A stretch of DNA of 62,282 bases, filler included, from Dirinaria sp. TL-2023a (lineage: Eukaryota), in assembly GCA_051941275.1 (NCBI GenBank). It is 29 parts of 29 records of this genome, joined end to end, with 100 filler letters (N's around TTAATTAATTAA, not from the genome) between each part and the next. Parts side by side here need not be neighbours in the genome. Positions count along the whole stretch, not along the records: positions 1 to 2,074 come from JAVEBF010002406.1; 28 more parts are not named here. One strand, written 5' to 3'. This document shows positions 1 to 60,985 of this stretch, in pieces. The notes beneath the pieces were generated by a model. The model did not search any database. It saw only the letters and a program-made list of their open reading frames with translations, and was not told the origin of the DNA. Within the stretch, counting starts at the first letter, position 1. Every line of letters begins with the position of its first letter. The translations under genes and the position numbers were made by a program.

Positions 1-638
1 ACATTTATGGAAATTTTGAGCGTCAGGAAACCACCCGATTGGCGTACAAGCTTCTGAAGCAAAAGAAGGAGCAGAGTTTCAACAACTTCTATACCAAATT
101 CATGCTCTATGGTCGCATGCTAGCCTATTCGGACGATTATCTGATGTGGGATCTGAAGGATAAGGTGAACTTGCAATTGAAGAAGGTTCTGGCCAACTAC
201 TGTGAGCCCGACTTCAAATCATTGCATGAGTTGAAGACGTACTTGCAGCAAGTGGATACTGGTCGAAGGATTTTGAAGCAAAAGCAAATGCAAGAGAAAC
301 CTCAGAAACCAACTAACATTGCACCAAAAGCCGAACCCCCATTATGCCTTCCTAACACTACCGTTGCCGCCACCGCCACCGCTACCGTCATGACCTCTAC
401 TATTGCTCCTACGTCGCAAGCGCAATCCTGGGCCGCCGTCGCGGCAAGAAACCTACCTTCTACACCTTCGCAAACACCTTCGCCGCAGGCACCTTCGCAG
501 GCAATTTCGCAAGCACTCTGGAAGCCCTGGAACCCAAAATTCTGCCTTACCATGCAGGACCTATGCGCCAAATTTCGTTATTATGCTAGGTGCAATCCTA
601 GGTATTTGGCGACGATGAGGGCGTCATGTAGGGTCTGA
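1..638 (+). mobile_element. LTR retrotransposon gag, 3' part, copy 1
   Basis: Gag-like LKQKKEQSFNNFYTKF segment and a degenerate Cys-containing tail. Near-identical to 1470..2074. Followed about 110 bp later by a PPT and an LTR. Confidence 0.8.
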
Positions 639-744
639 TAACGACTTCCCGACAGGCAACTTCATGGTCAATTGGGCAGGAAATGCCACCCATAAAGGCC
701 AACCAGGGCCCAGAATTTGCAAGCAACAGGGACGTTGCTTGACC

Positions 745-756
745 GAAGGGGGGGGG
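745..756 (+). other. Polypurine tract (PPT)
   Basis: GAAGGGGGGGGG ending 3 nt before the TG start of the LTR. Confidence 0.8.
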
Positions 757-759
757 TAA

Positions 760-1004
760 TGTCATGAACCTGACCTGGAGGGTTAGTTCACGTGACTAGT
801 CTGGACCCTGAAGCATGACTCTGGGGAGCCTGAGTTGGGTATATCAGCTTGATCGGGTTAGCGCCTTCGGTCCGTGTATTGCCCGGTTCCTTATTTGGTT
901 TCTGTACTTAGTATTCTTCCTCTTTTTCTTCTTTTCCTTCCTCATACTTAGTGTCCTAGTCTAGTAGTATCCATATGTCTATGAGCGCTGTGCAGGCCAT
1001 GACA
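760..1004 (+). mobile_element. LTR (245 bp)
   Basis: TGTCATG...CATGACA 7-bp terminal inverted repeat, PPT upstream, gag downstream. Homologous to 59335..59632 (shared TGTCATGAACC start and GAGCGCTGTGCAG near the end). Confidence 0.88.
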
Positions 1005-1153
1005 TTACACTAAGTATCATCCCTCTGCACTCGTTTTAAGCGTTGCACGAGTAGATCAAGCAATCGCAGTCTCAGAAGAAGAAGAAGTTCTTGAAGAAGA
1101 AGACCCCCTTGATCTCCTTGATCACCTACACCTAGAAGAAGAAGAAGAACATC

Positions 1154-2074
1154 ATGAATAAGATTCAAAAGAACTTCTCTCCACCCTCACTACCTGTTTC
1201 TCCTACTTCAGAATCGCCTCAGAAATCCTACCTCCTTCCCGACCCTCCCGTGTTCACCGGCGGCAACAATGATGAATATGAGTATGAAGATTGGGCTCTC
1301 AGAATTCGCGATAAACTAAATGGCAATGCCGATCGCTTCACTGCGCAAACGGCCACTGCTTATGTTATAAGTCGCATTGGCGGAGAGGCATCAAAGCATA
1401 TTCTATTCTATCGGCTTCGAGATTGCGATTATTTCAAAGTCCTCAGCATGATCTTTGACGCATTGCATGACATTTATGAAAATTTTGAGCGCCAGAAAAT
1501 CACTCGATTGGCGTACAAGCTTCTGAAGCAAAAGAAGGAGCAGAGTTTCAACAACTTCTATACCAAATTCATGCTCTATGGTCGCATGCTAGCCTATTCG
1601 AACGATTATCTGATGTGAGATCTGAAGGATAAGATGAACTTGCAATTGAAGAAGGTTCTGGTCAACTACTGTGAGCCCGACTTCAAATCATTGCATGAGT
1701 TGAAGACGTACTTGCAGCAAGTGAATACTGGTCGAAGGATTTTGAAGCAAAAGCAAATGCAAGAGAAACCTCAGAAATCAACTAACATTGCATCAAAAGT
1801 CGAACCCTCATTATGCCTTTCTAACACTATCGTTGCCGCCACCGTCACCGCTATTGTCATGATCTCTACTATTGCTTCTACGTCGCAAGCGCAATTCTGG
1901 GCCGCCGTCGCGGCAAGAAATCTACCTTCTACACCTTCGCAAACATCTTCGCCGCAGGCACCTTCGCAGGCAATTTCGCAAGCACTCTGGAAGCCCTGGA
2001 ACCCAAAATTCTGCCTTACCATGCAGGACCTATGCGCCAAATTTCGTTATTATGCTAGGTGCAATCCTAGGTAT
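1154..2074 (+). pseudogene. LTR retrotransposon gag, copy 2, with a TGG>TGA stop at 1616-1618
   Basis: LPDPPVFTGG...YEDWALRIRDKL...AYVISRIGGEA gag motif. The other copy has TGG where this one has TGA. Confidence 0.82.
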
Positions 2075-2174
2075 NNNNNNNNNNNNNNNNNNNNNNNNNN
2101 NNNNNNNNNNNNNNNNNNTTAATTAATTAANNNNNNNNNNNNNNNNNNNNNNNNNNNNNNNNNNNNNNNNNNNN
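2075..2174. other. Artificial contig-joining spacer (first of 28 identical spacers)
   Basis: N44 + TTAATTAATTAA (stops in all six frames) + N44, recurring about every 2.1 kb up to 60166..60265. Contig lengths fall monotonically (2074, 2074, 2073, 2072, 2071, 2067 ... 2017). Confidence 0.98.
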
Positions 2175-4225: not shown

Positions 4226-5189
4226 AGACAGATACTTGATACCTGGATNNNNNNNNNNNNNNNNNNNNNNNNNNNNNNNNNNNNNNNNNNNNTTAATTAA
4301 TTAANNNNNNNNNNNNNNNNNNNNNNNNNNNNNNNNNNNNNNNNNNNNGTTCTTCGCACTGCATCTCATTTCAATGATGCAAACATGACTAATCTTTTTT
4401 CGTCGAATGAGAGATTAAAACGAGCGTTGATAATGAGCGATTGAATCTGGATGTCTTCTCAGCAAACTCATGATAGATAAATAATCTCATTCGGCACTCG
4501 AAGCCCGTCTTCTATCAAGACTAGCTATGCGGTCACTGAAAAAATTTATCTATGACGATTTCTGTATTTTATAACATGCAATGAGCGATTTCTTTCGACA
4601 CTTTCGTCTCAGTTCTTTACTCGTATTTCATTCTGTGACAATAAGTAAAGAGAGTCACAAAGAGCAAAAACATCTCAGTTCAAGAACTGAAGAGTTCTTC
4701 GTCTAATAACAATTCTTGTATTCGTAATATCGAGATCTTCATCTCTTGCATCGTAATACTCGTGACGTAATGTTGAATATCGAGAAAAACTTGCTATTCT
4801 AATAAGAAGACATAGAATGTAGCTGATGTAGAATGACGAATCGAAGAAGACGTTTTCGACAGCAACAGTATCGATGTCGCTGAAGACGAAATCGCGAGAA
4901 ACTTATTAGACTCTTTATATCTATCTTCTCTATTGATTTCGTGTCAACGCAAGCGTCAATCACGCGAAACAATCGACTTTGACGACGCGAATTTCGAGTT
5001 CAGACGCGTGTGAAAGACTCGATCACAGTTGTCATCACGAGAACACACTGCTCTCATTATGTTCTCATCGTCAGAAGATCTCTTGACTCTGCTTACTAAA
5101 AGCAGATTCGTAGTCGACATCACGTATAGATGAATCTCGTCGTCAGTCTCAGCAAACTCATAATAAGACGAAAGATAGTTCTACTCTAC

Positions 5190-5325
5190 TGTCAAGATCT
5201 TAATCAAGATTAGATAGATTTATTCGATTGCAGTCTTGACAACATGAGAGTTATCAAAAGATTAACTAAATCAAGTCAGAGACTTGATCGTTTATCTAAT
5301 TACTTGATGTTTCAGAGTCGTAACA
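5190..5325 (+). mobile_element. Solo LTR (136 bp) with 5-bp target-site duplication TCTAC
   Basis: TGTCAAG...GTCGTAACA flanked by TCTAC at 5185-5189 and 5326-5330. Similar to 22664..22793. Confidence 0.85.
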
Positions 5326-6118
5326 TCTACGAGCATCTGCTGAAGCACATGTTGCACTCAGATATCAGAAAAACGATCGCATCACTTTCACACGAGACAA
5401 TTCTTCGAGCAAATGCTCAGTCGATATAATCTCGATTTATGAAATCAAGATCTCACAATCTCACGATTCGATATTAAAGATTTACGATGTATCGAATCTC
5501 GCAGACCGCGCAGAAGACAAAGAAGAAAAGTTGCTTGTCACTCAAGGTTTTGACGATAAGCGGTGTTATCAGATTAATGACAGTGTTTTATTCAAGCAAC
5601 GTCAATAGAGATATCCTCATAGATCGAATTCATTTCAAGAACAGAATATCTGATGTAAAATCATTGTAGTTCTATCGCTCAATCTTGTCTCTGACACTCT
5701 GTACACTTTATACTGAGTGTGAGACTGACCGACGTGTTACGAATCGAGCAGATCAGCGAATCTTTTGTCGATATACTGTTACGATTTAGTGAACTCTGAG
5801 TCAGTAACTTATATGAGATACGTCGGAAGATAGCATCAATCACGATTATCTGCAGATGCTTTATCGCTCTACTCAGACGAGCAGATGAGCAGATGATCTA
5901 CTGTCTCGCTCGAGAGAGCAGAGAGGATTTCATTGTGTATATAAATTCTCAACACGACGCTCTTCTGACATCGTGTTCAACTTTAGTTAGATTGTCTACT
6001 ACTGCTACAAGTACTAAGTATCTACCTCGTGTGATACTTATCATATCACTATTGACACCCGTTGTTTCTTGACAGACCTCTTCATACAAGATCAAATCTC
6101 AGTCTCTTATTAGTCTAA

Positions 6119-6244
6119 CTCTAGACGACGTGAGTAGACGCAACACAAGTCTCTAACTTAGTTTAGTTGATCTTTTAGTAACTTCTACGTTATCAAGGCT
6201 TCAACCCTGAATAACTTATCTAATCAAGATTTGAGGCTTTGACA
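6119..6244 (-). mobile_element. Partial copy of the same short LTR family
   Basis: Reverse complement reads TGTCAAAG...TTGATTAGATA...AAAAGATCAACTAAACTAAG, aligning with the 5190 and 22664 copies. Its distal end is unclear. Confidence 0.6.
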
Positions 6245-6863
6245 ACACGGTGTTTCTTTTGCTTTCTCATACCGCTGCTAAAGAAAGTCAGACTGAGTAG
6301 AAGTTTCATGCGATGCTCTCAGACGAGAAGTTTTACGACGAGCCATCATGTAGCGCTTGTGAGAAGAAAGACAGAAGATGTGAACGAAAACTGATGAAGA
6401 AGAAAACGTAACTGCGAGAATNNNNNNNNNNNNNNNNNNNNNNNNNNNNNNNNNNNNNNNNNNNNTTAATTAATTAANNNNNNNNNNNNNNNNNNNNNNN
6501 NNNNNNNNNNNNNNNNNNNNNCTTTTCAACGAAAGGTGCCTTATGGTTCACGATGCAGTTTCCAGAGATGCTGGACACGCTTATGATTCTAACGCCAAGG
6601 CCTGGCAAAAGGGAAATTGTCAGCCCGTTCCGAAATACTTTTCCGGTTGCGACGTATCTCTACTTTAACCTCACCGTCTAGCTTAAGGTATACAGTATCT
6701 CCATAATCTCGTAGAAAAGACCTATAAAAGCGGCGACCAAGGAGTCCTCCGCTTCGAGCTCTTCCAGCTCCTGGACGAAACGGAACAATTGTACATCATA
6801 ACCACGTATCAAGACCAATCTACCAAGTATAATCATCGCAAAACGAAATTGTATCTGGATACT

Positions 6864-17869: not shown

Positions 17870-19393
17870 ATGGCCTCCGCAGTGTTCTTCCTCGACTTAA
17901 AGGGCAAGGCAAGCTTTCTTCCGACAGCAAATGATGGTGCAAAAATTGACAATCGGTGTTTAGACCCTGCTCGCCCGCAACTACAGGGGAGACATCCCCA
18001 TGTCCGCCGTCGAAAAATTCCCCATCCTCCTCTCCGAAGCCGAAGAAGAAAGCTCCGCCGTCCCACCCTGTTTCTCCGACGAAGGCATAAATGTATGACC
18101 CAATGCTCTGCGCACTTCACCGTCCTACAACCTTCCTCACAGCAAAAAACATTCTTTCTGACAGATGGCTGGGTACTCCAATATCTACAGTACCTCTACA
18201 TCAGGCATAACAACCTATTTCTCCTTGCCCTTACCAAACGCAACACGAACGCGACCGAGATTCTGCTCTTCCTCCACAAGATCGTGGAAGTCTTCACCGA
18301 ATATTTCAAAGAGCTGGAGGAGGAGAGTATACGGGACAACTTCGTGATAATTTACGAATTACTGGACGAGATGATGGATTTCGGGTACCCACAGACCACA
18401 GAGAGCAAAATACTGCAGGAGTAAGCCATTCTCGTTGTTCTGGCGCCCCATAACACGCTTGGCGGCGGAATCTGTGCGCGGACGAAGGCTTGATATCTGA
18501 AGGCTGACACCGTTGGTTGGGGCTGGTGCAGATACATAACACAAGAATCGCACAAATTGGAAATCCAAGCCCGACCCCCTATTGCCGTCACCAACGCCGT
18601 CTCCTGGCGGTCCGAAGGGATCCGCTATCGCAAAAACGAAGTCTTCCTCGACGTCATCGAGTCTCTAAATCTCCTTGTCTCCTCCACGGGTAACGTGCTA
18701 CGGTCGGAAATTCTTGGCGCTGTCAAGTTGAAATGCTATCTAAGCGGTATGCCGGAGCTACGATTAGGACTGAACGATAAAGTGATGTTCGAAACGACTG
18801 GGCGAGCGACGCGAGGTAAGGCGGTGGAGATGGAGGACGTCAAATTCCACCAGTGCGTGCGGTTGTCCCGGTTCGAGAACGATCGGACGATCAGTTTCAT
18901 TCCCCCAGACGGGGAATTTGAGCTGATGAGCTACCGGTTGAATACGCAGGTGAAGCCACTGATCTGGGTGGAGAGCGATGTGAGGTCTCATTCGGGATCG
19001 AGGATCGAGTACACGTTGAAGGCGAGGGCGCAGTTTAAGCGCCGCTCCACAGCCAACAATGTGGAGATCCTGGTTCCCGTGCCCGAAGACGCAGACACGC
19101 CTCGCTTCCGCACGAACATTGGCTCGGTGCACTACGCGCCCGAGAAGTCGGCCATTATTTGGAAAATCAAGCAATTCGGGGGTGGTAAAGAATTCCTGAT
19201 GCGGGCCGAACTGGGTTTGCCATCTGTCAAAGGGGATGATGAGCACGGAGGCGGTATGACTGGTGGGTTTGGGGGAAGCATGGGTGGCGCACAGGGCGGG
19301 AAAGGGAAACGACCGATCAGCGTCAAGTTCGAGATCCCCTACTTCACCACCAGCGGCATCCAAGTGCGTTACTTGAAGATTATAGAGCCGAAG
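17870..19393 (+). CDS. APM1: AP-1 adaptor complex mu subunit; introns 17909-17963 (GC-AG), 18093-18190, 18421-18531; last exon missing
   Basis: MASAVFFLDLKGKTLLARNYRGDIP...RDNFVIIYELLDEMMDFGYPQTT...YRKNEVFLDV...DVKFHQCVRL...FIPPDGEFELMSYR. Confidence 0.96.
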
Positions 19394-19633
19394 GTGTGTC
19401 TGATCCCTCGTCCCCCCTCGTCCNNNNNNNNNNNNNNNNNNNNNNNNNNNNNNNNNNNNNNNNNNNNTTAATTAATTAANNNNNNNNNNNNNNNNNNNNN
19501 NNNNNNNNNNNNNNNNNNNNNNNGGTTGATTCGTCGCAAAGTGGTGGCTCAGCGGGACATAAGGTGTTGACCGTCCATGGAATTTAAATTATATATATTG
19601 TAATTAGATCAAATGTTTTCGGTTACCACGGAG

Positions 19634-20657: not shown

Positions 20658-22663
20658 GGCGAGCGTGCATGCGCACTCCGTGACCGACATGGCAGACGAA
20701 GAACTCAGCATCGATTACGGCAATGGCCACTGAACGCCTGGAGCGGCGCAGAGCTATTACGAGTGCCACGCTGCCGGCTATAAATCTCGCTTATCAAACG
20801 ATCGGGATTTGGAGTGAGTGGTGGAGTTATGTCAAACAATCATCTCATATAACGGCAACGCGGTGATGAGAAGGAGGGAAGGGGCATAGGTTGACCACCA
20901 TACTATATGTATGAAATCGGCGCCATCAACGATTCTTAAATTCCCGAGTATTTCGTTCCTATCGCTGCGACTTTAGCCTGCACGTTTTACCCCCTCTTTC
21001 TTCTCATTCCTTGTCCTTCCCGATCCCGGCCTCCGCCGCAAAACCCTATTCCTTCCCTACCATCGATGGGACCGCTTGGCAGCCTTACTGTTCGTGCAGC
21101 TCCAATATCTCAAACTTCTCCTTTCGCTTGTTCTCTATTAGCATAGCAAGCTTGAATGAAGGGTCTAGGTCTGCGTATTTGGACCCACGAGTGACGGTTT
21201 TGTCCTTCGGCTGCCTTGCAGCCTACACTGGTGTTTCACACTGCACCGGTTGTAGTGTGATTTGATACCGCTTCCTGCGTGGATAACTTGCTTTATATTA
21301 CTTAAAACCTTCGATATCAGAAGTAGCGCGTCAGCTCTCGACGGCTAGCCAGGACAACGTCCGCGACGTCCATGACCTTTAGAGATCTGGGCTTGAAGCC
21401 CGTGGGTCCTCTGGTTTTACTTTGGCCCATATGGACTGCCTTGTAAGATTCTAGCTATTGGGGTTTTCAGGATAGCTGGATACGGTCGTTGGAAGGTCTC
21501 GTGATCTGCTATTTCCTTGAGTTTTCCTTGGGAGTAACATGCTTCAATTCCTAATAGGTAACTACTACTGCTACACTACCCTACTTNNNNNNNNNNNNNN
21601 NNNNNNNNNNNNNNNNNNNNNNNNNNNNNNTTAATTAATTAANNNNNNNNNNNNNNNNNNNNNNNNNNNNNNNNNNNNNNNNNNNNGATATCAGCTAGTA
21701 ATGCCTCAATATTCGCGACGCGTGCTGGCGAGCGTGTTGACGATGAGATGGGTTGCGAGTCAGAAATCTTCAGAGAGAATAACATCGTGTCAATGAGAGT
21801 GTCAGAGAATAACGTCGCTGTCGATGACGATAAGGATGTCGTTGTCGATGAGAATGTCGATGCAGTTGATTTCTGAGCGCGACGGGTAATTCTTCTAACT
21901 CTAGCGAACTGTCGAATTGGAGGCATTGTAGTTCTGAGATATAAACTAACTAGTGAATCTAGTGTTAAAAAGCGTTTTGCGATGCGAAAATCGAGTGCGA
22001 TTTGATATTAAAACAGGCGATGGAGCAATGGTGATGACCAATCCAAGATGAGGCTCATGGTGATCTAAATACACACTACCAAGTCAACTACCAAAATCTC
22101 ACTGCTCATACTGCTAATCGAATTGGGATAGACCTTGACGATATGCGACATACGCAAGTTGCTTTGAGAGTATTGCTTTACAATCATTGCTTGAAAATTC
22201 AATACTTGAAAATCAATGCTTTGAAATCAACAAAACATTGCTTAAAAATCAACAATGCATTGACCTAGATGACAATGTCAGCAACGCACCCGGTAGACAT
22301 CTAGACACTTCCCCCTAGTCCTGTTAGACACTACAGTGAAGCACAATTCGTCGATGTATATTCGTTTTATCATTTCCGGCCGCGTTTTTAGCCGTTGAAC
22401 TCGATCAGAGAATATCGTTGAAAATTTTGAACCACTTAGCAGTCATTCGTATTTAGCTTTTGTCAAGAGACGGATATAGATCGAAATAAACTGACAGAAT
22501 CTCTCGATAACAGATTCATCAATCAGAGAATAGCGACTTCCGCATAGCTTAGAGACGAATGCATACTGCTCAATTAAATTTTTTAAATTCGTAATTCATA
22601 GCACAGTTTATTCACATATCATCGTCTCTCTGATGTTTTATTTCAGTGTCTTACGCTTGAAAT

Positions 22664-22793
22664 TGTCAAAGACCCAACCTTGATTAGATAGGTTTCCCAA
22701 TGGTAAAAGTCCCGGCAGCGCCAAAAGACTAACTAAACCAAGTCAAGGGACTTGGTGCCTATCTTACTACTTAGGTGTTCTAGGGTCGTAACA
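22664..22793 (+). mobile_element. Short LTR (130 bp), same family as 5190..5325
   Basis: TGTCAAAG...GGGTCGTAACA. No matching TSD seen. Confidence 0.7.
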
Positions 22794-23745
22794 TTCAATT
22801 CTCGCGAGCTCAAAAAGCTCTTCAATAATTAATCGAATCGTGTTGCGTAGTATGATGATGTCACGAAAATCGAAATGAAATCGATTGCGCGATTCGTCAA
22901 AATTATGAAAATCTACTCTCAGATGATTAGACATTTCGTTACATCGCTGCAGCTTCGTGACGAGCTAAACAAAGCACTCATCACATATCGTTATCGCATG
23001 TACACACACTTCGAGTCATACATCGTCGAGTCGATTATGCGTCTAAACGAAACGTACTTGTGTGCTCGTCACACTCAAGATTTAGATGACGTCGATGATT
23101 GACGCATTTTCGACTCGTCGTTAGAATCTCTAACGCTGATAAAAAAGAAAGTCGTTAGAGTAAAGTCTGTATCGACGACATCGTCATCTAACGTCAGCAG
23201 AGTATCGACAGAATACTGTCGCAGATGAAGCAACGATGTTGAGTGTTCGAAGAATTGCAAGTATAAACACGTCTGTTTCAAATATCAGTCACATGAGCAC
23301 ATAACAAAAAATTGCAAACAGGTGCTATCTTTCAGCAACTTTATACTCTTATTCGTCAAGTCACGTCGATGATTTGTATCGATGTCTACATCGCTGCAGT
23401 CAATTAGTGAGATCTTTCTTTATGATATCACATCTGTCGATGAGACATCGTTTGACGATCCGAGATCTCTCAAAACTTCAAAATAAGTATATTTTTTGAG
23501 AGAACACTCGGATCAAAAGTTTGTAAACACATTGGTCAGAATATTCACTCACGGCGCTAAAATCGAGTATATCGATTCGAAAAGTCTATTTTTGACTCTC
23601 AATTATCTTTCTGCTTCTTCTGCATTTGAAATTCTCACTGTCGATTTCATCAAACAAATGAAGACACATCGCATCATTCGCGTGTCGAGAACGTCGACGA
23701 GACGCTTCGTATTATCATCGTTAGATCTAGTATCTAAAACATTTG
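22794..23745 (+). mobile_element. Degenerate DIRS/Ngaro-like (tyrosine recombinase) retrotransposon: gag tail with Cys/His finger and start of the RT ORF
   Basis: YCRR*SNDVECSKNCKYKHVC finger, then HSDQKFVNTLVRIFTHGAKIEY...NYLSA...FVLSSLDLVSK, matching HPD..F...G..IGY...N..SA...SPLGLVPK once CC>TC and GG>GA are reverted. Confidence 0.6.
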
Positions 23746-23845: not shown

Positions 23846-25902
23846 CGGACCAACACAGCCCGATGTCACGACAGCTTGGCAAAAGAGTGCCATTGGCCTC
23901 CCAGCCATGCAGCAATACTTTACATTCGGATTCCATCAATGCCGTTGGGGTTACGCCAATTGGTCCCAGCTACAAGAGGTCGTGGACAATTATGAAAAAT
24001 TTGGCATTCCGCTCGAGAATATCTGGACGGATATTGACTATATGAATCAGTATCGAGACTTCGACAACGATCCAATAAGGTATGGGTATTCGGAGGGCGA
24101 GACCTTTCTTTCAAACTTACATGCGGGCGGTCGTCACTACATTCCAATCATTGATTCTGCCATCTATGTGCCGAACCCTCAGAATGCGAGCGATAACTAC
24201 ACCATCTTCGATAACGGCAACGACACTGGCTCGTTCATGCTCAATCCCGATGGCAGTACATATATCGGTGAAGTCTGGCCCGGCTATACGGTCTTCCCTG
24301 ACTGGATCAGCGGCGGTGCTGGGCAATGGTGGATTAACGAAATGACGAACTGGCACTCCAAAGTCTCCTTCGATGGCGCATGGATCGATATGTCAGAAGT
24401 CTCGTCCTTTTGTATCGGCAGTTGCGGATCACAGAACATTACGATGAATCCCGTCCACCCCGGGTTTCAACTTCCTGGCGAGCCCGGCGACTTGGTACTC
24501 ACCTATCCAGAAGGCTTCAATCTCACCAATGCAACAGAGGCCGCATCAGCCTCCTCTGCGGCAGCCAGCCAATCCGCTGCCACCTCATCTGCCAGCGCCT
24601 CCTCCACTTCGACCTCATACCTCCGCACCACCCCTACGCCGGGCGTTCGAAACGTCAATTACCCACCCTATGTCATCAACAATGTACAGGGTGATCTCGC
24701 CGTGCACGCAGTCTCCCCCAACGCCACTCACCATGACGGCACGCTTGAATACGAAGTCCACAACCTCTTCGGCTACCAGATCCTCAATGCCACGTACCAC
24801 GCACTGCTGTCGGCCATGCCGAACAAACGCCCCTTCATTATCGGCCGCTCCACTTTCTCCGGCGCCGGAAAATGGGCCGGCCACTGGTAAGTTCTCAGCT
24901 TTACCTCCTCAAACCATATCGTGCGTCGTGAGAAGGTTCTAGCCGTCAATGCTCTCAAAAAGCTACCCGCAATGCAACCATTCACTTCCAATTAAACACC
25001 CAAAAGAAAAAAAAAACCCCCTAATGCTAACATATAAACTCCAAACCAACAGGGGCGGCGACAACACCAGTCTCTGGGCGTACATGTTCTTCAGCATCCC
25101 GCAAGCGCTCAGCTTCTCGCTCTTCGGGATCCCCATGTTCGGCGTCGACACATGCGGCTTCAACGGCAACAGCGACGAGGAGCTGTGCAACCGCTGGATG
25201 CAGCTGAGCGCCTTCTTCCCCTTCTACCGCAACCACAACACGCTCTCCGCGAACCCGCAAGAAGCCTACGTCTGGGCCTCGGTGATCGACGCCTCCAGGA
25301 CCGCCATGGAAATCCGCTACCTCCTCCTGCCCTACCTCTACACCCTCTTCCACCTCGCCCATACCACCGGCAGCACCGTGATGCGGGCGCTGAGCTGGGA
25401 ATTCCCCACGGACCCGTCCCTCGCCGCTGCAGATCGACAGTTCTTCCTCGGCCCGGCCCTGCTCGTGACCCCCGTGCTCGAGCAAGGCGCCACTTCCGTC
25501 GCCGGCGTCTTCCCAGGCTCCTCCTCCACTCAAGGAGGAGAAATCTACTACGACTGGTACAACCAGTCCGCGCTTCCCTCCATCTCTTCCGGCGGAAACC
25601 TCACCCTCCCCGCCCCACTAGGCCACATCCCGCTCTTCGTCCGCGGGGGCCACATCCTGCCCACCCAGACCCCGGCCCTGACAACGCGCGACTCCCGCTG
25701 CAATCCATGGGGCTTACTCGTGGCGCTGAACGTCCACGGCACGGCTTCAGGCAGCCTCTATGTCGACGACGGCGAAAGCCAGGTCCAGGCCGCGACGCTG
25801 TACGTCGAGTTCTTGGCTACTACGGGGGGGGAGTTGTATGCGTCTGCGCGCGGCGCGTTCAGGGATCTGAATCCGTTGGAGAGTGTGACGGTTATGGGTG
25901 TG
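23846..25902 (+). CDS. GH31 alpha-glucosidase, internal part; intron 24887-25052
   Basis: FGFHQCRWGY, WTDIDYM, catalytic WIDMSE, HW|GGDN, GVDTCGF, RWMQLSAFFPFYRNHN. Confidence 0.95.
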
Positions 25903-30316: not shown

Positions 30317-32372
30317 GACGCTTCGCAATTACATCGTCGATGCACTTGAAAAGAATTGAATTCGATCATTCAGCGATCTCATCGAAGCGTCTGTGTTGTT
30401 TGTAAAGAAGTTCGATGATAATTTACGACTTTGTGTTGATTATCGAGAACTCAATGAGATCATCATCAAGAATAAATATCTCTTGTCGCTATTTTCTGAG
30501 ACGCTCGAGCGATTCGCGCGTGCTCGTCATTTTATCAAAATCGATATTAGAAACGTTTATCATCGCATTCGAATTCGCAAAGACGAGAAATGAAAGATCG
30601 CGTTTCGTACTCGTTATGATCAATTTGAATATCAAGTAATATCTTTCGATCTGACTAACGTTTCTGCTATTTTTCAGTCTTATGTAAATCACACGTTGAA
30701 ATCATACATCGACGTGTGTTATATGATTTATCTGAATGATGTTCTCATTTATTCAGAGACTGAGAAGCAGCATTGAGAGAATGTTCGTCGAATGTTTCGC
30801 GTCTTGTTAGCACATCGTCTCTACGCGAAGCTATTTAAGTGTGCTTTCAATCGCAGTGAGATATCTTTTCTTGAATTCATAGTAAAGCAAAGTGAGATTC
30901 AAATGAAACAATCGCGTATCGAAGTCATTTCTGAATGATCGATACTCAAATCTGAGAAAGACATTTTAATCTTCTTGAGATTTGCTGAATTTTATCGACG
31001 CTTTATTCGCGGATTCTCGCAAATAGTCGCGTCGCTAACTGATTTAACAATCGAAGCGAAGAAGAGCGAAGCTCGTTTCTCGTTCAATTGAAACGTTAAA
31101 ACGAAGAAAACGTTCGAACGACTTAAGCAGACGTTTATCGGCGCTTCTATTTTGCAGCATTATGATTGAGATGCTTCGCTTCAAATGAAAACGAATGCTT
31201 CAAAACGAAGAGTCGATGATGTGCTCAATCAACTGAGTCGCGATCGTTAATGACACTCGATTGCGTTTTTTAACTATAAATTCAAGAGAGCAGAGACTCG
31301 CTGAAACACGCATAACAAAAAGTTGTATGCGATAGTTCTGAGATTTAAAAATTGAAGACACTATTTTCAAGATAGTCAACACCTCATTCGTGTGATCACG
31401 AATTACAATAATCTTCGTTATTTTATGACAACGAAGAAGCTCACTGCTAAATAAATTCGCTGAGTAGAGAAGCTTGCTACGTTTAACTTTATCATAAAGT
31501 ATCGCAAAGAGAAACTTAATTCCGCGAATGCGTCGTCAAGAAGACTCGATCTTATGACATTCGATGAAAGCGACGATAATAACGACGACTTTCTACTCAC
31601 ATTGCAAAATAAATTTCGTTTTGCTGAGTATCAGTCTGAGCAGTTGAGTGACGCAAGCGTCTTTTCTGCGATCAAACTAGCAGCGTTGACAGCGCAACTG
31701 AGTGATAATGTCATCGCAGATACTCAAGTCAGAGACTTAAATGAGAAAATGCTCGATAAACGTCGCAGTCTTTTAAACTCTGCTTCGTCTCGACTTTTAG
31801 TACATCGAGTGATTAAGTCGAAAAGATTCTTCGTTGCTTTGCAAGAGTTTATGACTGCGTGATTGCATCAATTACAACAGAAGAACGCTTTTGTTGTGAA
31901 GAAGCAATGACGACAGAGATTTGCAAGCAAAAAGAAAGAACTTTCGCATTGAAATATGAGCGAGAATGAACTGTTACGTCGAGATCTCGCCGTCTATGTT
32001 TTTAACGACTCTGCTACGAAGAAAAAGATTCTTCGTACTCATCATGATGACTCTGATGCGAATCATTTTGCGCGAAGTCGTACAGAAACTGCGATTCGCA
32101 AGAAATATTTCTGATTCAGCATGCTGTCAGAAATCGAGAATTATGTTCGCTCATATCTCGATTGTCAACGAGTGCGAGTTTATCATCATAAATCTTATGA
32201 CGAACTTGAATCAATTTCATCAGATGAAGAGCAATCATTTAATACTATTACTCTAAACTTCATTACTGATATGTTCTCTGCTAAGAATTTATATACTGAA
32301 AAGATCAGTGATGCTATTTTGATAATAGTTGATAAAGTAACTAAGTACGTCACGTACATATCTATCATCTCG
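30317..32372 (+). mobile_element. Ty3/gypsy pol remnant (RT, RNase H, integrase zinc finger), many stops
   Basis: LRLCVDYRELN, DE*KIAFRTRYD, YLNDVLIYS (from YLDD), FAEFYRRFI, ITNYNNL, HHD...NHF...CQR, ITLNFITD. Confidence 0.93.
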
Positions 32373-32472: not shown

Positions 32473-32622
32473 TCAGATGAATTTTTCATTTCATTATCTA
32501 CTCCGCAGTATATTAGTCTGTCAGCAACATCGTCTGTGATGAAGCTCAGATCTATGATAGTCTGAGCCCCCTGATAGTCCCGCGTTATGATATTACTTGG
32601 GAGCGCCAGCGAGGCGCCGACG
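32473..32622 (-). mobile_element. LINE endonuclease (APE) fragment
   Basis: Minus strand reads ASLALPSNIITRDYQGAQTIIDLSFITDDVADRLIYC...NSS, resembling the T.IDL.F...SDH end of the APE domain. Confidence 0.5.
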
Positions 32623-33033
32623 CTTTATTATCGTTATTTATGTTGATAATTTTCTCATAATCGAATTTTTTAAAATCAAGGTTCAAAAAATTAAACAAAT
32701 GCTTTATATTAAATTTATATAAAACTTATTCGTATTCGTGATCCTTATTCGTATCCGTCAAGTCGGAGAAACTATTAGAGTTGTCGCAGGATTTTTATTA
32801 AACTATCGCATATATCACATATCAGAAGAAATGTATTCATCATCATTATTTGCATCTATATCAAAATAATCAGATTAATGTATTAACTTGCAATTTGAGT
32901 ACGTTTTAAAAAATTTGAAAAAAATTTACTGCTAAATATATCAAATAGATATTATAGTATCAGCTGACAAATTAATTTATCTCATCTATATTATCTGTTT
33001 CATCTGTATCATCTGCATTATCTGCATTTACTA

Positions 33034-33430
33034 ATGATTTTTTCATCGTTATCATCGTTTCGCGAAAACGAGTATATATTTATCGAGATTGTTTCGATCA
33101 TGTCGTCGTCGTCAATTGATGACGCGAAATCTGAAATCGACGAAATTTTTCTTCAGACGTTAAATATCTTCATCAAAAAGCACGATTATGCAATCGTTAT
33201 CAAAAACTCTGTTAAATCGTCTCAAGATGTAAAAAATAAGTTTTATATTCGCTGTACACGAGATAAAAAGTCGAAATCTCATGTAAATGTAACGAAACGC
33301 TCTGATGCAAATAACAAACTCATTGATTGCTCGTTTCGCATCGTCGTCAGATTTATCGACGATGACATGTAAAAATTCATCGTCATATTTCGTGCGAAAC
33401 ATAATTATGAAAATAATATTGAAGACTCTT
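33034..33430 (+). mobile_element. Mutator (MULE) transposase N-terminal FAR1/WRKY-like domain remnant
   Basis: KHDYAIVIKNS...IRCTRD...KLIDCSFRI...*KFIV...KHNY (C..C..H pattern). Ends where the LTR at 33442 begins. Confidence 0.6.
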
Positions 33431-33441
33431 ATTCAAATTGG

Positions 33442-33690
33442 TGTCAGGATCGGTGCAGAAGATATGATCTATGCAGGTGCTATTAACTAAATACACAAAG
33501 CATAAAGAAGAAAAGAAATCTACGAACTAAAATCAGACATAATATGAATGTGTAGGCGTTGGACCCTAATCGATCGGACCGACCACCACTTCGGATGCGC
33601 TAACCTCGATCAGATCAAAACTCAACATCACACACAAAAATCTTGTAAAAAATGATCCGAGTAACAACAGTAAGAGTCAGACTCGTAACA
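33442..33690 (-). mobile_element. 3' LTR (249 bp) of a minus-strand chromovirus
   Basis: TG...CA ends. Minus-strand PPT GAGAGAGGGGAATAG abuts 33690. Confidence 0.75.
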
Positions 33691-34528
33691 CTATTCCCCT
33701 CTCTCAAAAAACGATGTTCTCATCGCGTGTATATCTTAATTATGACGTTGATAACGTCTCTGCGAAGATTTGTTATTGTTGACGTTTTTCGTCTCGTCGG
33801 AGTATCGATGATGATAGTTCTGAGTGATATTCTTCGCATGCATGAACTCGTCATTATCGATATCGTATCATGTCAAATCTTTACTCTTTTTTTCTATTTA
33901 TCGACAACGATATTGTAATCTCTCATAATGTCAGCGCGAGCTGATTATGTCAATCAGCTCTCATTCATCGTTTTCGTTGATGACGATTTTATCGAGAGAT
34001 TCTTGTATTTGACTCGATAAAAAGTTTTCGAGATTTTTGCGCAATAGATTTGAGTGAAATACATTGTGTATTCTCATGATATTAGAGAGTTGAAGCTCAT
34101 AAAAGATTTCTATGACTTTGATTATCGAGAAAAATTCTAGCATCTTGTTTTCGATTTTTCTTGAAGATCTATCGATGACAATATTCTTGCTCGATAAAAA
34201 TATGATGTTCTCAACGTTATAAAATATCTCTTTTTTACTTTTATTCGTTTGTTTCTTCATGATCGTTTGTGAGATCTCTGCGTTTTCTCTCATCAGATTC
34301 AGTACGTTCTTCATGATATCTGTTATATTCTTCGTCTTCGTCGTTTGTAGACGATCTCTTACAATGATGTATTTGATATCGTCAGAGAAGAAGAACATGC
34401 GAGAGTGAAAGTCTTTATTGACGTAAAGAGAGTCATATCGATATCGACGACGACTGCGTTATTGTCAGCGAATTCTGTCATCGATAAAAGATCAACTCAG
34501 TTGTTCTGCATGTAATTGCAGTATAGAC
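33691..34528 (-). mobile_element. Ty3/gypsy chromovirus integrase C-terminus and chromodomain remnant
   Basis: EFADNNA..., YELQLSNIMRIHNVFHSNLL, then DE*ELIDIISSR*HYERLQYRCR*...DLT*Y chromodomain. Confidence 0.85.
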
Positions 34529-37526: not shown

Positions 37527-38597
37527 TCAAGGTCGAGCGGTTGGAAATGGCAGCCTCCGATGCATCCTCGCACTGATCTCGGCATACTCCTTCTCGTTCT
37601 CAGGAGTGATAGCTCCATGTCTCATGAGGAAATCGATCATGACCAGCGCCGAATTCGTCTTGAACTCGGCTCTCGCAAGCGCATCCTTGACCTGTTCCAC
37701 ATCCCACAGATAGAATTCCCTCACCTCTTCATCGCCGGGCGTCAGAACCACGTCCCCGCCAACCTCCAGATCATACACATAGATTAAATCCGGGGATACT
37801 AAGCCCCTCTCTCCCCCGTCTCCAGCATCACTCAATCCAACGTACGAAAGCACGCCGCAGCTGTGAGCGTTTTCCCGAACGAATTCCTCGGGCAGAGAAG
37901 CTTCTTCGGCCGCCTCGCGGACAATACACTCAAAGGGGCCTTCGCGGGCAGTGACACCGCCCGCTACTGTACTGTCCAAGCGATTCGGGTAGGTGAATAG
38001 GGTGGCGGATCGGCGGGGGACCCAGATTTTCATCCCACCACCACCACCACCCGCGGTCCGCGTGAAGACTGTTAGATGGGCGCCGCGGGCGATGATCCCG
38101 AAGAGGGAGCGCGCGAACCGTTCAATGGCGACGGGGTGCTTTGCGCCGATGATGGGGTAGGGTTCGCTATGCTGGCCGTGGAGAACGCTGAAGGTATTTT
38201 TGCGCAGCGCGACGCGGATGAGTTTGGAGAGTGCTGCGGTGCAGGATGAAAAGTAATCGTATGCGGGGTAGGCGTCATCATCGGACATGTTTGCGACCAG
38301 GTGCACGGTACGCTTTGTATGATCGACTTTGAATTCGGTAGTCCATGGCATCGATCGCACCACGGACTCTAGCATGAGGCCATGCGGTCGAGGATCGTTT
38401 AGTAAGAGGAAGGTATAATATGATCGAACGCTGTTAGATTGTGTTCGGGAAATATCATCATATGAAGAATCGTCATATGGGAAGCTAAGTAAACACAGCA
38501 TGAGCGCAATTGTTTCGTGTCTCAAACCTTTGCAGAACGTGACTTACCTATCGCACTCGTTCACCAGGTCAAGATTGCTCTTAAATAGACCCGTCAT
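37527..38597 (-). CDS. NUDIX hydrolase (thiamine pyrophosphokinase-related, YJR142W-like); intron 38547..38485
   Basis: SNLDLVNECD|SFPY, LFGIIARGAHL, IWVPRRS...YPNRLDSTVAGG, REAAEEASL Nudix box, YVYDLE, EFKTN, HRRLPFP. Confidence 0.88.
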
Positions 38598-58141: not shown

Positions 58142-59334
58142 GTATAATAGAGTCGATAATTATATCAATTTTCTATCGTCGCATTTTCTCGATTTAACAC
58201 TGATATGTTCGTATGTCTCGAAATCTCTCGTTCTCGAGTTGCATCGCTGTTTAACATTCGTTCGATCGCATCGATTACATCGATTTGTGTCTGTTCGTCG
58301 AATGTAATGTTTTCTAATTCTCGAAATACGTTATTATTTCATTCGAATTCATCGTCGAATTTCGTTTTCTGCTCTCGTTCGATAGTCGTATTAATCTTCT
58401 GAGTCGAGACAGATGCATTGTCTGATGTCGTCTCGTTCAGAACTTTTTAAAATACTGTAAAATTCTTCACATAATAGTATTTCTTCTTTAATGTTGATTT
58501 TGCATCTTCTGTCGAGTTTGTATCATCGTCGCAGTTATCTCAATCAATCATTAAATAAATTTTTTCGTAACGTAACGTTCAATTGTTTTTTAAATATCGC
58601 GTTTTTAGTTCGACAATTTCTTGCGAAATGATCTGATTTGTCACATGAATAACACGTTTTGTTAGTTTTATTTTGTTTAACTCTAAGATTTTTCTTTTTT
58701 CGTTCGATAGAATTCAATTTCATAGACATAATCTTATAATAAGACTGTGATTTCTTTTTTTCGATCGTTTTCAACGAATTTATACATAAAGACACTAGTT
58801 TTTTCTCGTGATTCGTTGTCGAAACGTTTTTTCATGACTCGTTTGTACAGTTTGTTGTCAAGATCGATGACGATCTCGATTAATTTTTCGAGAGATTCGT
58901 ATTCTCGTTCATCGCGCATAAGTTCATTCTTGATCGTATTCTTGAGTTCGCGTTTGAACATAATTTACAATGTCACGTGATCTCATTTCGTGAGTTTCGC
59001 GTATTTCTGAAATCGCGCTGCATAATTCGAAGCTGATTTGATTTGTTTAAGATGTTGTATTACTCGTTCGACGATGATTTTCTCATTAAAAATATCGAAG
59101 ATTCTTCGAATCGCTCTTTTGAAGTTATTAAAAGAAGCGAAAATTCTGTCGTTTGTATCTTTTTCATTGCTGAGTCGTGCTCGTAATTTAGATTTAAATC
59201 AATGTTGAGTTCTTTCTCTGAGAAAGATCGATGCGAAAATCGTTTTCTGATTTTCTGTCACGAGATGAAACACAAAATACAGTTTCATCTGCATAAATCA
59301 GTCGTCGAGATCTTCACGTTTTTTTTGTAAACAT
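58142..59334 (-). mobile_element. Ty3/gypsy gag remnant with CCHC zinc knuckle, interrupted by an LTR insertion
   Basis: CYSCDKSDHFARNC knuckle and LKQIKSASNYAARF gag motif; CC/GG depleted. Confidence 0.85.
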
Positions 59335-59632
59335 TGTCATGAACCAGACCCCTATGGACCTGATCACATGATTGGGTCACATGATTGCATGGACCCTGGA
59401 CCCTGAAGCAGAGTCCCTGGATATCACATGTGTGTGGAAAGGTCTATACCAAGTGTTTTGCTAGAGGTGTTGTGTTTTTGCCTGATCAGGTTTAGCGTTC
59501 TCGGATCGGTGTTGTTCCGATTCCACATTTAAATCTATCTGTATTTAGATTTCCTTTTCCTTTTCTTCTTCATAGATAGTGTTCTAGTTTATTCGTACTC
59601 ATATGTTATTGAGCGCTGTGCAGACTCTGACA
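59335..59632 (+). mobile_element. 5' LTR (298 bp), related to 760..1004, followed by leader and a degenerate gag-like frame (about 59752..60165)
   Basis: TGTCATGAACC...TGACA. The downstream leader GTTGCACGAGTAGA is shared with contig 1. Confidence 0.82.
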
Positions 59633-60985
59633 TTATACTATCTATCACTCTTATCTTTGCACTCGTCGACGTTGCACGAGTAGACCAAACAATTGCAAGA
59701 TTAAGAACCTCATAATAAGAAAACTTACGATATAAGATTTATAAAATCAAGATGTCTAAACAGATACAAAATCTTCGAGTTTCGATCACTCAGAGTCAGA
59801 CTTCTATCTTCGTCAATAACTCAATTAACGATGAGGATCTTCTCTCAATGATGAAAGACTTGTGACAGAAAACAGAAAATTGTCGCGTGTCGATGTTGTC
59901 AGATGATTCGATAAAAATTTTTTCGAAAGCAGATTAGATTCTCACTCTCGAAATCATAAACAATGTCGATCAATTGAAATATTTAGTTCGCAACGACGAC
60001 GATGCTGTTTTCGATTTTATAAAGAAGTATCGAGTGAAACGCGATGCAGCATTGCGCTGTGTAAAAGAGTGAAGAAAAATGAAAAAAATGAGAGACGATG
60101 CAATGAATCAGATCATGAGAGCTCAAGAAAGATTTCAGATGTTCAAACAAGATTTTGAGCAAGAGNNNNNNNNNNNNNNNNNNNNNNNNNNNNNNNNNNN
60201 NNNNNNNNNTTAATTAATTAANNNNNNNNNNNNNNNNNNNNNNNNNNNNNNNNNNNNNNNNNNNNGTGTTCTTGGCTTCGTGGATAGATCCTCCATGAAA
60301 TGAATTCTCATTGCGGCGATGTTTTCCCCTCCCTTTAGCAATTTCTTTTTTTAATCTTGAATCTTGATCTTTTACATCCTCTCCTCTACAATCAAATCCA
60401 ATCCAACCCCAAAATTCATCAACGACTCATCCCTATTCATATCATCTCACTTCTGAGCATTGCTTTTTCCCGCGGTGCGGCTTACCCAACTCAGATCCTT
60501 GGTCTCTGCTTTTTTAAAGGAGAGGAGATTGATGAGTAGGTTTGGATCTATGTATCTATGATGATGTGGAATGAGATTTGATGGGGATGGGGTTTGATGT
60601 AGAGAGGTGATAGATATCTGTTGGGTGGATTGATGTTTATCGATGGAGCTAGGGTACGAGTATACATTTACACTGCTTCTTTAGAAATTTTATCGACAAT
60701 ATGTAATGTTCTTTTGAAGAGTTGAGTTTCTGCTCCTATGTTGATTTAACGCCTGATTGGTTTAGTGCAAGATGATAGGCGACTGGTTGAAAATGGAGTG
60801 GATAGCGGTAGTGTAAGAGACAAGCCAGGATGTACGTCGGATGCAGGACTTAAATCTAGCACTGATTCGCAGCTCAAGAGGTGTTCTATAGCTTGTGTGT
60901 TAGTGGAAGGGATGCGGTTTGATCTTGATTGCTTCTTGACAAAGTTATGTTACTCGTTTGAAAGGGGTTCGAGGTATATTATAAA

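Follow-up and report, generated by a model that had tools for sequence, protein, structure and literature searches.

The closest described system, the RID- and DIM-2-dependent RIP of Neurospora crassa, produces only C:G>T:A transitions, on both strands, with the base 3′ of the target deciding. It strikes repeats and transposons with sharp borders against genes; it may go on to saturation, and its relics carry in-frame stops. Its target is CpA, CpC is its least-used context, and it usually mutates both copies of a repeat. The hypermutation described here, in DNA of a lichen fungus, is like it in the type of change, the strands, the deciding base, the borders, the saturation and the relics, and apparently in the targets. 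It differs in several respects: the target is CpC and not CpA; there is no TpA excess and the classical indices are negative; GC halts near 30-38%, and stops arise only through TGG>TGA; and the single repeat pair available, whose physical duplication is uncertain, is mutated in one copy only. APOBEC3G, which deaminates the 3′ C of CC in minus-strand cDNA only, shares the CC dinucleotide and the burst-like inactivation of retroelements, but in the present case the 5′ C mutates, neither strand is spared, and the affected elements include a DNA transposon.

That the context of RIP-like mutation varies by fungal lineage is already apparent from MATE of Aspergillus nidulans (CpG and CpA) and Ty1 of Microbotryum violaceum (CpG or TpCpG), and the present case is like them in this; a CpC preference, in contrast, is found in none of the variants described in the accessible part of that paper (PMC2621366). 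RIPCAL defines a CpC index, and the same part reports no CpC-dominant fungus (PMC2621366). For the Lecanoromycete Cladonia rangiformis, the accessible part of the source defines RIP purely by GC content (<35%, peaking near 16%), records RID and DIM-2 homologues, and notes that small elements of ~730 bp escape (PMC12542154). Transposon compartments with very sharp borders against gene space are common to that lichen (as far as the accessible part describes it) and to our data, but GC is higher here and at first only CC and GG are removed (PMC12542154). The text of that paper has no occurrence of 'CpC' or 'dinucleotide' and gives no dinucleotide context for its RIP. According to the accessible part of a 2025 survey, which covered 1,239 fungal genomes, a preference for CpA is common to RIP-like defences (PMC12543289). 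Our search of openly accessible papers found no CpC-dominant RIP for lichen or other fungi.

The window is the whole stretch of DNA that was analysed, 62,282 nucleotides long: 29 small contigs of ~2 kb from a metagenome-assembled genome of Dirinaria, a lichen fungus, joined by artificial linkers. Features are collected in Table 1, where c1 is the contig at 1-2074. Five of the 29 contigs are depleted in CC and GG (rho(CC/GG) 0.03-0.38, against 0.79-1.22 in the other 24). Their rho(TC/GA) is 1.4-1.6 with no TpA excess, CpA and CpG are retained, and CC and GG are lost equally, that is, on both strands. Besides c15 (below), the depleted contigs encode a DUF7492 domain (c3, + strand), a weak match to a Tf2-type integrase SH3 (c16, − strand), and weak matches to gag and a zinc knuckle (c28, − strand); on its + strand c28 has a homologue of the c1 LTR, then a depleted gag-like region. 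A Pfam search of c11 returned no family, and the final ~860 bp of that contig hold about five CC and GG together.

Table 1. Features of the window (positions along the whole stretch)
Feature	Positions	Strand	Remark
Repeat copy 1, (almost) unmutated; 3′ two thirds of gag-like ORF	1..605	+	T state at 1/24 sites
Gag-like ORF, variant 1	3..638	+	Open at contig start; stop codon 636-638
Polypurine tract, directly 5′ of LTR	741..756	+	Sequence reading
LTR, 245 bp	760..1004	+	Terminal inverted repeat TGTCATG...CATGACA; homologue in c28
Gag-like ORF, variant 2, ATG to contig end	1154..2074	+	Broken by one TGA
Repeat copy 2, lightly hypermutated	1470..2074	+	22 CpC>TpC + 1 CpG>TpG
TGA stop, from TGG via GpG>GpA	1616..1618	+	Pair alignment
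Terminal 128 bp, identical to 478-605	1947..2074	+	0/18 CpC-type sites changed
Artificial linker N44-TTAATTAATTAA-N44	2075..2174	.	28 linkers between 29 contigs
c3, CC/GG-depleted	4349..6421	.	13 CC, 10 GG; rho 0.15
c11, partial depletion	21687..23745	.	rho CC 0.38
c15, Ty3/gypsy pol, single frame from 30318	30317..32372	+	RT, RNase H, integrase zinc finger
c16, CC/GG-depleted	32473..34528	.	rho 0.31
c28	58142..60165	.	First 1203 bp without any CC/GG
Normal-CC/GG-density island in c28	59341..59591	+	Inside LTR homologue

The mutation spectrum is seen most directly in the repeat pair of c1. An earlier note on this DNA had claimed about two dozen differences between the copies, all transitions, all but one of them CC>TC or GG>GA and nearly all in copy 2, and the computed alignment agrees on every point. 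Ungapped comparison of 1-605 with 1470-2074 (605 columns, 96% identity) gives 24 differences. All 24 are transitions, with no substitution other than the C>T type; 23 are CpC>TpC or GpG>GpA and one is CpG>TpG. Sorted by 3′ neighbour with strands collapsed, the changed sites number 0 of 85 at CpA, 23 of 71 at CpC, 0 of 78 at CpT and 1 of 58 at CpG. The binomial probability of at least 23 of 24 falling at CpC is 1.4e-13 under a null set by the CpC share of c1 sites. The base 5′ of the changed C shows no strong bias. Copy 2 has the T/A state at 23 of the 24 sites (22 CpC-type and the CpG), position 23 being the sole CpC>TpC with T in copy 1. The CpG change (copy 2, position 386/1855) adjoins a CpC change, and a tandem CC>TT lies at 385-386. 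Along copy 2, the changed CpC-type sites number 22 of 53 in region 1-480 and 0 of 18 in region 481-605. The stop that the note ascribed to TGG>TGA is also present. An apparent clustering by strand (G>A blocks, then C>T) reflects where GG and CC sites are available and is not significant by Fisher's test. None of the 9 sites in c1 at the first C of CCC is changed, which favours a 'CCD' target rule, but in saturated c15 Pro>Phe (8) is about as frequent as Pro>Leu (7), which speaks against it, so the rule is only hinted at.

In c1 an internal region is followed by the LTR (760-1004) and then by a second internal region, the period being 1469 bp. The contig ends exactly 128 bp past the last pair difference. 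This order may reflect a real tandem array; dispersed copies joined by the assembler through identical LTRs, or two genotypes, would fit equally well. The length of the terminal 128 bp suggests the end of an assembly-graph bubble. The NCBI gene model P0002 is spliced over both gag-like variants. The name 'gag', used in the earlier note, is plausible but weak: the ORF matches no Pfam family, even at E <= 1, while P0004, at 35% identity to it, contains a zinc knuckle and matches Retrotrans_gag below threshold, and the relatives P0003-P0005 are retroelement gag-like. A metagenome scan with the c1 gag protein gave 496 pattern matches and no relatives among them. The lopsidedness of the pair, 23 changes against one, counts against the explanation preferred below, as does the doubtful adjacency of its two copies.

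Saturation is seen in c15 (2056 bp), which has 3 CC and 2 GG among 375 C and 395 G, and keeps 138 CpG. Its translation lacks Pro and Trp and has 16 in-frame stops, 14 of them TGA. We took the unmutated relative P0007 as reference (659 aa compared, gapless, no indel). Every Pro (35/35) and Trp (12/12) and nearly every Gly (32/33) of the reference is replaced. Among the 269 amino-acid substitutions, the CpC rule fits 121, CpA 19, CpG 14 and CpT 37, and C>T or G>A can account for 173. Since the c1 pair has no other type of change, and c15 is without an indel and keeps its CpG, the process is burst-like. Another contig, c23 (integrase zinc finger, normal composition), was tried as the unmutated partner of c15 and rejected, the two sequences being unrelated.

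A scan of public metagenome contigs with the pol alignment gathered 80 related Ty3 loci (the L loci). CC and GG together number 0-6 per ~2 kb in 68 of the 80, a proportion biased by a query alignment made mostly of hypermutated proteins; the 12 control Ty3 loci are normal. The longest run free of CC and GG is 10,043 bp, against 42-125 bp in controls, and the transition from saturated to normal DNA takes <=500 bp. One such border (L061) adjoins an intact P-type ATPase gene and another (L005) is a repeat edge. The CC-free DNA contains Ty3, Copia (RVT_2), LINE (Exo_endo_phos_2 and RVT_1) and a hAT dimerisation domain (E 1.5e-5), and nested transposon compartments are CC-free throughout. Since Copia, LINE and hAT are also hit, the process does not depend on reverse transcription. 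Copy number was judged within the 80 loci, and some CC-free stretches have no match among them.

The L loci have only ~70% DNA identity to c15, so the signature occurs in at least two species. No named protein is more than 62% identical to the P-type ATPase of L061, and lichen-forming Lecanoromycetes account for many of its closest named matches; the host of the L loci can be placed no more finely than as a Pezizomycotina fungus. The signature is found in contigs of up to 428 kb, with at least 14 contig-name prefixes among the matches listed, and also in proteins from NCBI, JGI and ENA. The earlier note had proposed counting C>T by 3′ neighbour in repeat families. This was done on one independent Ty3 family alignment of 36 sequences, at sites including the 28 CpC retained by L005, and CpC came first: the other copies have T/A in 87% of cells at CpC, 42% at CpG, 20% at CpT and 11% at CpA.

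Some units of 240-365 bp, LTR-sized and with normal CC and GG, are embedded in the saturated DNA, and in c28 such an LTR is joined to its own saturated internal region. These units may be recent insertions or short repeats that escape. Simple homology-driven mutation does not predict them, so these normal stretches, too, stand against the preferred explanation.

The usual RIP thresholds are ~0.89 for TpA/ApT and ~1.03 for (CpA+TpG)/(ApC+GpT). The 68 CC-free loci have 0.48-0.67 and 1.52-2.30, respectively; classical RIP indices are negative on CpC-mutated DNA. Across the same loci rho(CG) drops from 1.36 to 0.13 while rho(CA) climbs (Spearman -0.89), and those richest in remaining CpG are already saturated for CC and GG. 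The older loci lose their CpG secondarily, at a later stage.

The depleted contigs, the losses in c15, the 68 loci and the 36-sequence count together sustain the earlier note's proposal of a repeat-directed mutator acting on the 5′ C of CpC. The explanation that we think probable is a RIP-like, double-strand, repeat-targeted and CpC-specific mutator. The transposon content and the borders point to a dependence on repeats. In outline, a RIP-like defence of a lichen-forming ascomycete would target double-stranded repeated DNA, mainly transposons, and turn C into T wherever the 3′ neighbour is C, on both strands and in bursts. It could recur on the same repeats until CC and GG are exhausted, because copies that lose identical sites stay alike; exhaustion in turn would remove all Pro and Gly codons and convert TGG to TGA. 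The GC of the mutated DNA would level off at ~30-38%, with CpG lost later and more slowly. The likeliest effector is a homologue of the RID/DIM-2 class of cytosine-C5 methyltransferases whose target preference has changed; it would presumably sense homology and act premeiotically. This class of enzyme is favoured because the 3′ neighbour decides, as it does in RIP (CpA) and for CpG methyltransferases.

That last point bears on the main rival, in which transposon chromatin would recruit a dedicated DNA cytosine deaminase that acts on double-stranded or transiently unwound DNA. All the evidence for the phenomenon fits it equally well: full target loss across 10 kb would speak of a very efficient activity, and unmutated LTR islands could be chromatin out of the enzyme's reach. 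Known DNA deaminases (AID/APOBEC, DddA-type), however, take their context mainly from the base 5′ of the target, whereas in our data the base 3′ of the target sets the context, with no strong bias at the 5′ position, and we regard such an enzyme as rather unlikely. APOBEC-like editing of single-stranded cDNA during retroelement reverse transcription would share the CC dinucleotide, and would suit the mutation of one gag variant with the other spared and the sparing of some LTRs, since retroviral editing gradients leave LTR regions protected. It is very improbable all the same, and was rejected in its AID/APOBEC form: both strands are equally affected, it is the first (5′) C of CC that is edited, the 3′ base sets the context, and a hAT DNA transposon and entire nested compartments are CC-free.

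Time and damage were also weighed against a RIP-like mutator. Methylation of transposon DNA at CpC followed by spontaneous deamination of 5-methylcytosine over evolutionary time has a parallel in the context-dependent CpG decay that does occur in the 68 CC-free loci. But slow decay would be expected to leave intermediate states and other types of mutation as well, and all 24 changes in the c1 pair are of the C>T type, c15 is nearly CC/GG-free without an indel and with its CpG kept, and the most CpG-rich CC-free loci are already saturated, so we give slow decay little chance. Pure CpG methylation and deamination was rejected on the 1 of 58 CpG sites changed in c1 and the CpG retained in c15. 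Sequencing or assembly error might be suspected in a metagenome-assembled genome of 2-kb contigs, and UV photoproducts in a sun-exposed lichen, the latter with one tandem CC>TT in its favour. Error is at odds with the long contigs, many contig-name prefixes and three protein sources noted above. UV targets the 3′ pyrimidine of TC and CC and also hits C before T, but CpT is unchanged in the c1 pair; and since both would have to explain a signature apparently confined to transposons, with sharp borders, neither is credible to any real degree.

On balance we lean towards an undescribed type of RIP in lichen ascomycetes (the Dirinaria genome and at least one other species), with near-absolute CpC specificity and a new cytosine modifier of double-stranded DNA, clearing compartments of at least 10 kb and invisible to current indices and surveys. 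The target preference of RIP-like systems could then shift completely to CpC. Because CpC-mutated DNA scores as RIP-negative, lichen fungi, and perhaps others, may be misclassified as such and transposon relics missed. The question of the enzyme becomes testable: a comparison of the RID, DIM-2 and deaminase genes of CpC-type with those of CpA-type Lecanoromycetes could reveal what determines RIP context, and perhaps provide a DNA-modifying enzyme specific for CpC that would serve as a tool. CpC relics also corrupt annotation, with TGA taken as Trp and proteins free of Pro and Gly deposited: public gene callers read TGA as Trp at 24/24 and 12/12 of the Trp codons checked.

The two variants of the gag-like repeat in the first contig of the window (c1, 1-2074), copy 1 at 1-605 and copy 2 at 1470-2074, align without gaps and differ in 24 columns, all 24 of them transitions. 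The earlier note had described about two dozen differences, all transitions, all but one of them CC>TC or GG>GA and nearly all in copy 2, and the count bears this out: 22 are CpC>TpC or the complementary GpG>GpA, mutated in copy 2, another of this type is mutated in copy 1 instead (position 23), and one is a CpG>TpG change in copy 2 (position 386/1855), immediately 3′ of a CpC change, which places 23/24 at CpC and 23/24 in copy 2. The stop it ascribed to TGGG>TGAG is present as TGG>TGA at 1616-1618. With strands collapsed, the changed sites number 0/85 for CpA, 23/71 for CpC, 0/78 for CpT and 1/58 for CpG; the probability of at least 23/24 at CpC from site share alone is 1.4e-13, and CpC 'dominance' in RIPCAL terms is 23 to 1. 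The CpC-specific differences are real and well beyond chance. Along the repeat, copy 2 is changed at 22/53 CpC-type sites relative to 1-480 (CC 16/35, GG 6/18) and at 0/18 relative to 481-605. A strong bias in the 5′ neighbour of the changed C is absent from the pair, as is any significant strand bias; the succession of G>A and then C>T blocks was considered as strand clustering and rejected, the blocks tracking the positions of GG and CC sites. The first C of CCC is changed in 0/9 cases, versus 23/62 at the remaining CpC sites, counts that hint at an early CCD preference; in the saturated contig c15, the tallies of Pro>Phe and Pro>Leu changes do not support such a preference.

Five of the 29 contigs (c3, c11, c15, c16 and c28) have a dinucleotide odds ratio (rho) of 0.03-0.38 for CC/GG and 1.4-1.6 for TC/GA at a GC content of 0.34-0.40, with CpG kept or relatively enriched (1.4-1.9), CpA unchanged and no TpA excess by these odds ratios; in the other 24, rho(CC) is 0.79-1.22. 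CC and GG are entirely missing from the first 1,203 bp of c28, and c15 retains 3 CC and 2 GG despite 375 C and 395 G. A DUF7492 domain (E 6.6e-25), perhaps part of a transposon protein, perhaps of a duplicated host gene, is encoded by the depleted contig c3 (4349-6421). The sequence of c15 is a Ty3/gypsy pol (RVT_1, RT_RNaseH, Integrase_H2C2) in a single reading frame, which is interrupted by 16 stops, TGA in 14 cases, retains two Gly and lacks Pro and Trp altogether. Its closest unmutated relative, the protein P0007, served as reference in a gap-free alignment over 659 residues, in which Pro is replaced at 35/35 positions (by Ser, Phe, Leu or Arg), Gly at 32/33 (by Asp, Glu, Arg, Ser, Lys or Asn) and Trp is turned to stop at 12/12. 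Explicable as C>T/G>A are 173/269 substitutions; the CpC rule explains 121, CpA 19, CpG 14 and CpT 37. This pattern fixes the direction as C to T, and because indels are absent and 138 CpG are still intact, the mutation was a burst.

Among the best 120 relatives of the c15 pol in the database, 32 have less than 2% Pro + Gly, yet 1.5-3.5% Trp; in two of these that were placed in fetched DNA (metagenome loci L002, 4001-6052, and L011), every Trp codon is TGA (24/24 and 12/12). Public gene callers evidently read TGA as Trp in CC/GG-free pol relics; hypermutation mimics genetic code 4, and database proteins without Pro or Gly are the result. Public metagenome contigs scanned with an alignment of c15-related proteins gave 80 loci, of which 68 have a pol match of about 2 kb with 0-6 CC+GG, rho 0.00-0.04 and GC 0.27-0.38, a proportion that is no prevalence estimate since the query alignment was skewed to hypermutated sequences. 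The remaining 12, more distant Ty3 loci used as controls, have rho(CC) 0.90-1.08. The longest CC/GG-free run is 10,043 bp, all of locus L024, versus 42-125 bp in controls. At about 70% DNA identity to c15, these loci belong to another species; L061 is flanked by an intact heavy-metal P-type ATPase gene whose named relatives are Pezizomycotina at no more than 62% identity, many of the nearest being lichen-forming Lecanoromycetes.

Tabulation of C>T by 3′ neighbour, a check proposed with the earlier note, was run on the Ty3 family of L005 (36 sequences), taking as reference the first 714 bp of the L005 element, where some CC/GG is left, and comparing 35 further copies with it. The reference keeps 28 CpC sites, at which 87% of the cells of the other copies hold a transition, with 42% at CpG, 20% at CpT and 11% at CpA, cells being sequences rather than events; here too CpC is targeted most, followed by CpG. 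Across the 68 CC-free loci (those with 0-6 CC+GG), rho(CG) drops from 1.36 to 0.13 along with falling GC and rising rho(CA), which points to a slower and later CpG>TpG decay superimposed on the CpC burst, perhaps deamination of methylated CpG.

Besides Ty3, CC-free DNA holds Copia (RVT_2, L042) and LINE (Exo_endo_phos_2 and RVT_1; L037, L052, L022), and L051 adds a hAT dimerisation domain at E 1.5e-5, above the Pfam cut-off. The borders of CC-free tracts are sharp: in L005 CC/GG density is normal across the repeat edge (~1787) and for about 100 bp into the repeat, lowered for about 350 bp and then zero, and in L061 the tract starts a few hundred bases past the ATPase gene. Islands of normal composition within saturated DNA are short (240-365 bp) and LTR-like, and those in L005, L061 and L022 may have been inserted recently or lack the length needed for recognition. 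The LTR of c28 was spared though joined to its own element's saturated interior.

The C>T process is burst-like and double-strand and appears restricted to transposons, with specificity set by the 3′ neighbour, and the genome-level claim of a CpC-specific repeat mutator now has much stronger evidence, from the five depleted contigs, c15 among them, and the 68 loci, than the c1 pair alone gave it. RIP and dinucleotide-specific C5-methyltransferases follow the same 3′-neighbour logic, whereas AID/APOBEC and DddA deaminases mainly read the 5′ neighbour, a difference that weighs against the main rival, a dedicated deaminase that the chromatin of repeats would recruit. Editing of cDNA during reverse transcription fits poorly, as a hAT DNA transposon is affected and loss is equal on both strands; slow decay of CpC methylation, UV damage and artefact also fit poorly. 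By its likeness to RIP, the decisive 3′ neighbour favours a RID/DIM-2-class enzyme with altered preference as the candidate. Such an enzyme, shifted to CpC, would work on repeats premeiotically; identical sites would be lost in all copies, which would remain alike and be recognised anew until targets were exhausted, and this repeated recognition of still-similar copies would lead to complete CC/GG clearance.

RIP-like hypermutation is a known kind of process, and the CpC preference sets the present case apart from the usual CpA. The RIPCAL paper, in the sections available, lists CpC>TpC among four possible classes; the usual target in its account is CpA, with Aspergillus nidulans showing CpG plus CpA and Microbotryum CpG/TpCpG (PMC2621366). 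A survey published in 2025 and covering 1,239 fungal genomes presents CpA preference as common to RIP-like defences, and the word CpC is absent from the accessible portion of its text (PMC12543289). Lichen-fungus papers, in their accessible portions, set RIP by GC content or RIPper indices (Cladonia rangiformis, PMC12542154; the Xanthoria 'Tangerine' preprint; a Helitron study). By classical indices the 68 CC-free loci are RIP-negative (TpA/ApT 0.48-0.67; (CpA+TpG)/(ApC+GpT) 1.52-2.30); their (CpC+GpG)/(TpC+GpA) is 0-0.013, versus 0.74-1.12 in controls. CpC-dominant RIP was not found in the literature searched (main texts of openly available papers), within which hypermutation of this type appears to be unreported.

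Internal region, LTR and internal region follow one another in c1 with a period of 1469 bp, and its source appears to be a small LTR element coding a gag-like protein only. No Pfam family was recognised for this protein; a 35%-identical relative (P0004) shows a zinc knuckle along with a Retrotrans_gag match below threshold. Exactly 128 bp separate the last difference from the contig end, the tail that a de Bruijn graph with the usual k=127 would leave where a variant bubble closes; copies 1 and 2 are therefore perhaps not physically adjacent. The 'adjacent copies' may be a true tandem array or, equally, dispersed copies or two genotypes stitched via identical LTRs, and under each of these arrangements the mutation spectrum stands. 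In the NCBI gene model (P0002, 103-1615) the end of variant 1 is spliced to the beginning of variant 2, with termination at the new TGA; the protein deposited from it is chimeric, drawn from two copies of the element.

Features of the window and of related metagenome loci
Feature	Position	Strand	Remarks	Basis
Gag-like ORF, variant 1	stop at 638			
Polypurine run	741-756		directly 5′ of LTR	
LTR of c1	760-1004		245 bp, ends TGTCATG...CATGACA	
Gag-like ORF, variant 2	start 1154			
Artificial linker	2075-2174 and 27 more places		N44-TTAATTAATTAA-N44	sequence
Adaptor-complex medium subunit	18557-19423		dinucleotide composition normal	
GH31 glycosidase	23907-25902		dinucleotide composition normal	
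NUDIX protein	37527-38525		dinucleotide composition normal	
ORF with integrase-type H2C2 zinc finger (c23)	47995-49092	-	365 aa, CC/GG normal	
Enolase-superfamily enzyme	54690-55703		dinucleotide composition normal	
Spared LTR stretch of c28	59341-59591		normal-CC/GG island	
242-bp unit	L005 7200-7450; twice in L061 (6900-8500)		normal-CC/GG island	
TG...CA unit, ~365 bp	L022 6396-6760		normal-CC/GG island	

The window (62,282 bases) consists of 29 contigs of 2,017-2,074 bp with 28 artificial linkers between them; since the contigs are sorted by falling size and linker-joined, those side by side are not genome neighbours. The protein encoded by c1 matches at 99% the NCBI entry 'MAG: hypothetical protein Q9191_008385 [Dirinaria sp. 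TL-2023a]', and the DNA thus belongs to the metagenome-assembled genome of an ascomycete that forms lichens. No kinship of the H2C2 ORF of c23 to the c15 pol was found when the two were compared; the c23 ORF may represent an element gene that is unmutated or has been domesticated. The adaptor, GH31, NUDIX and enolase-superfamily genes are fungal, and the GH31 gene lies in two ORFs, via an intron or a frameshift.
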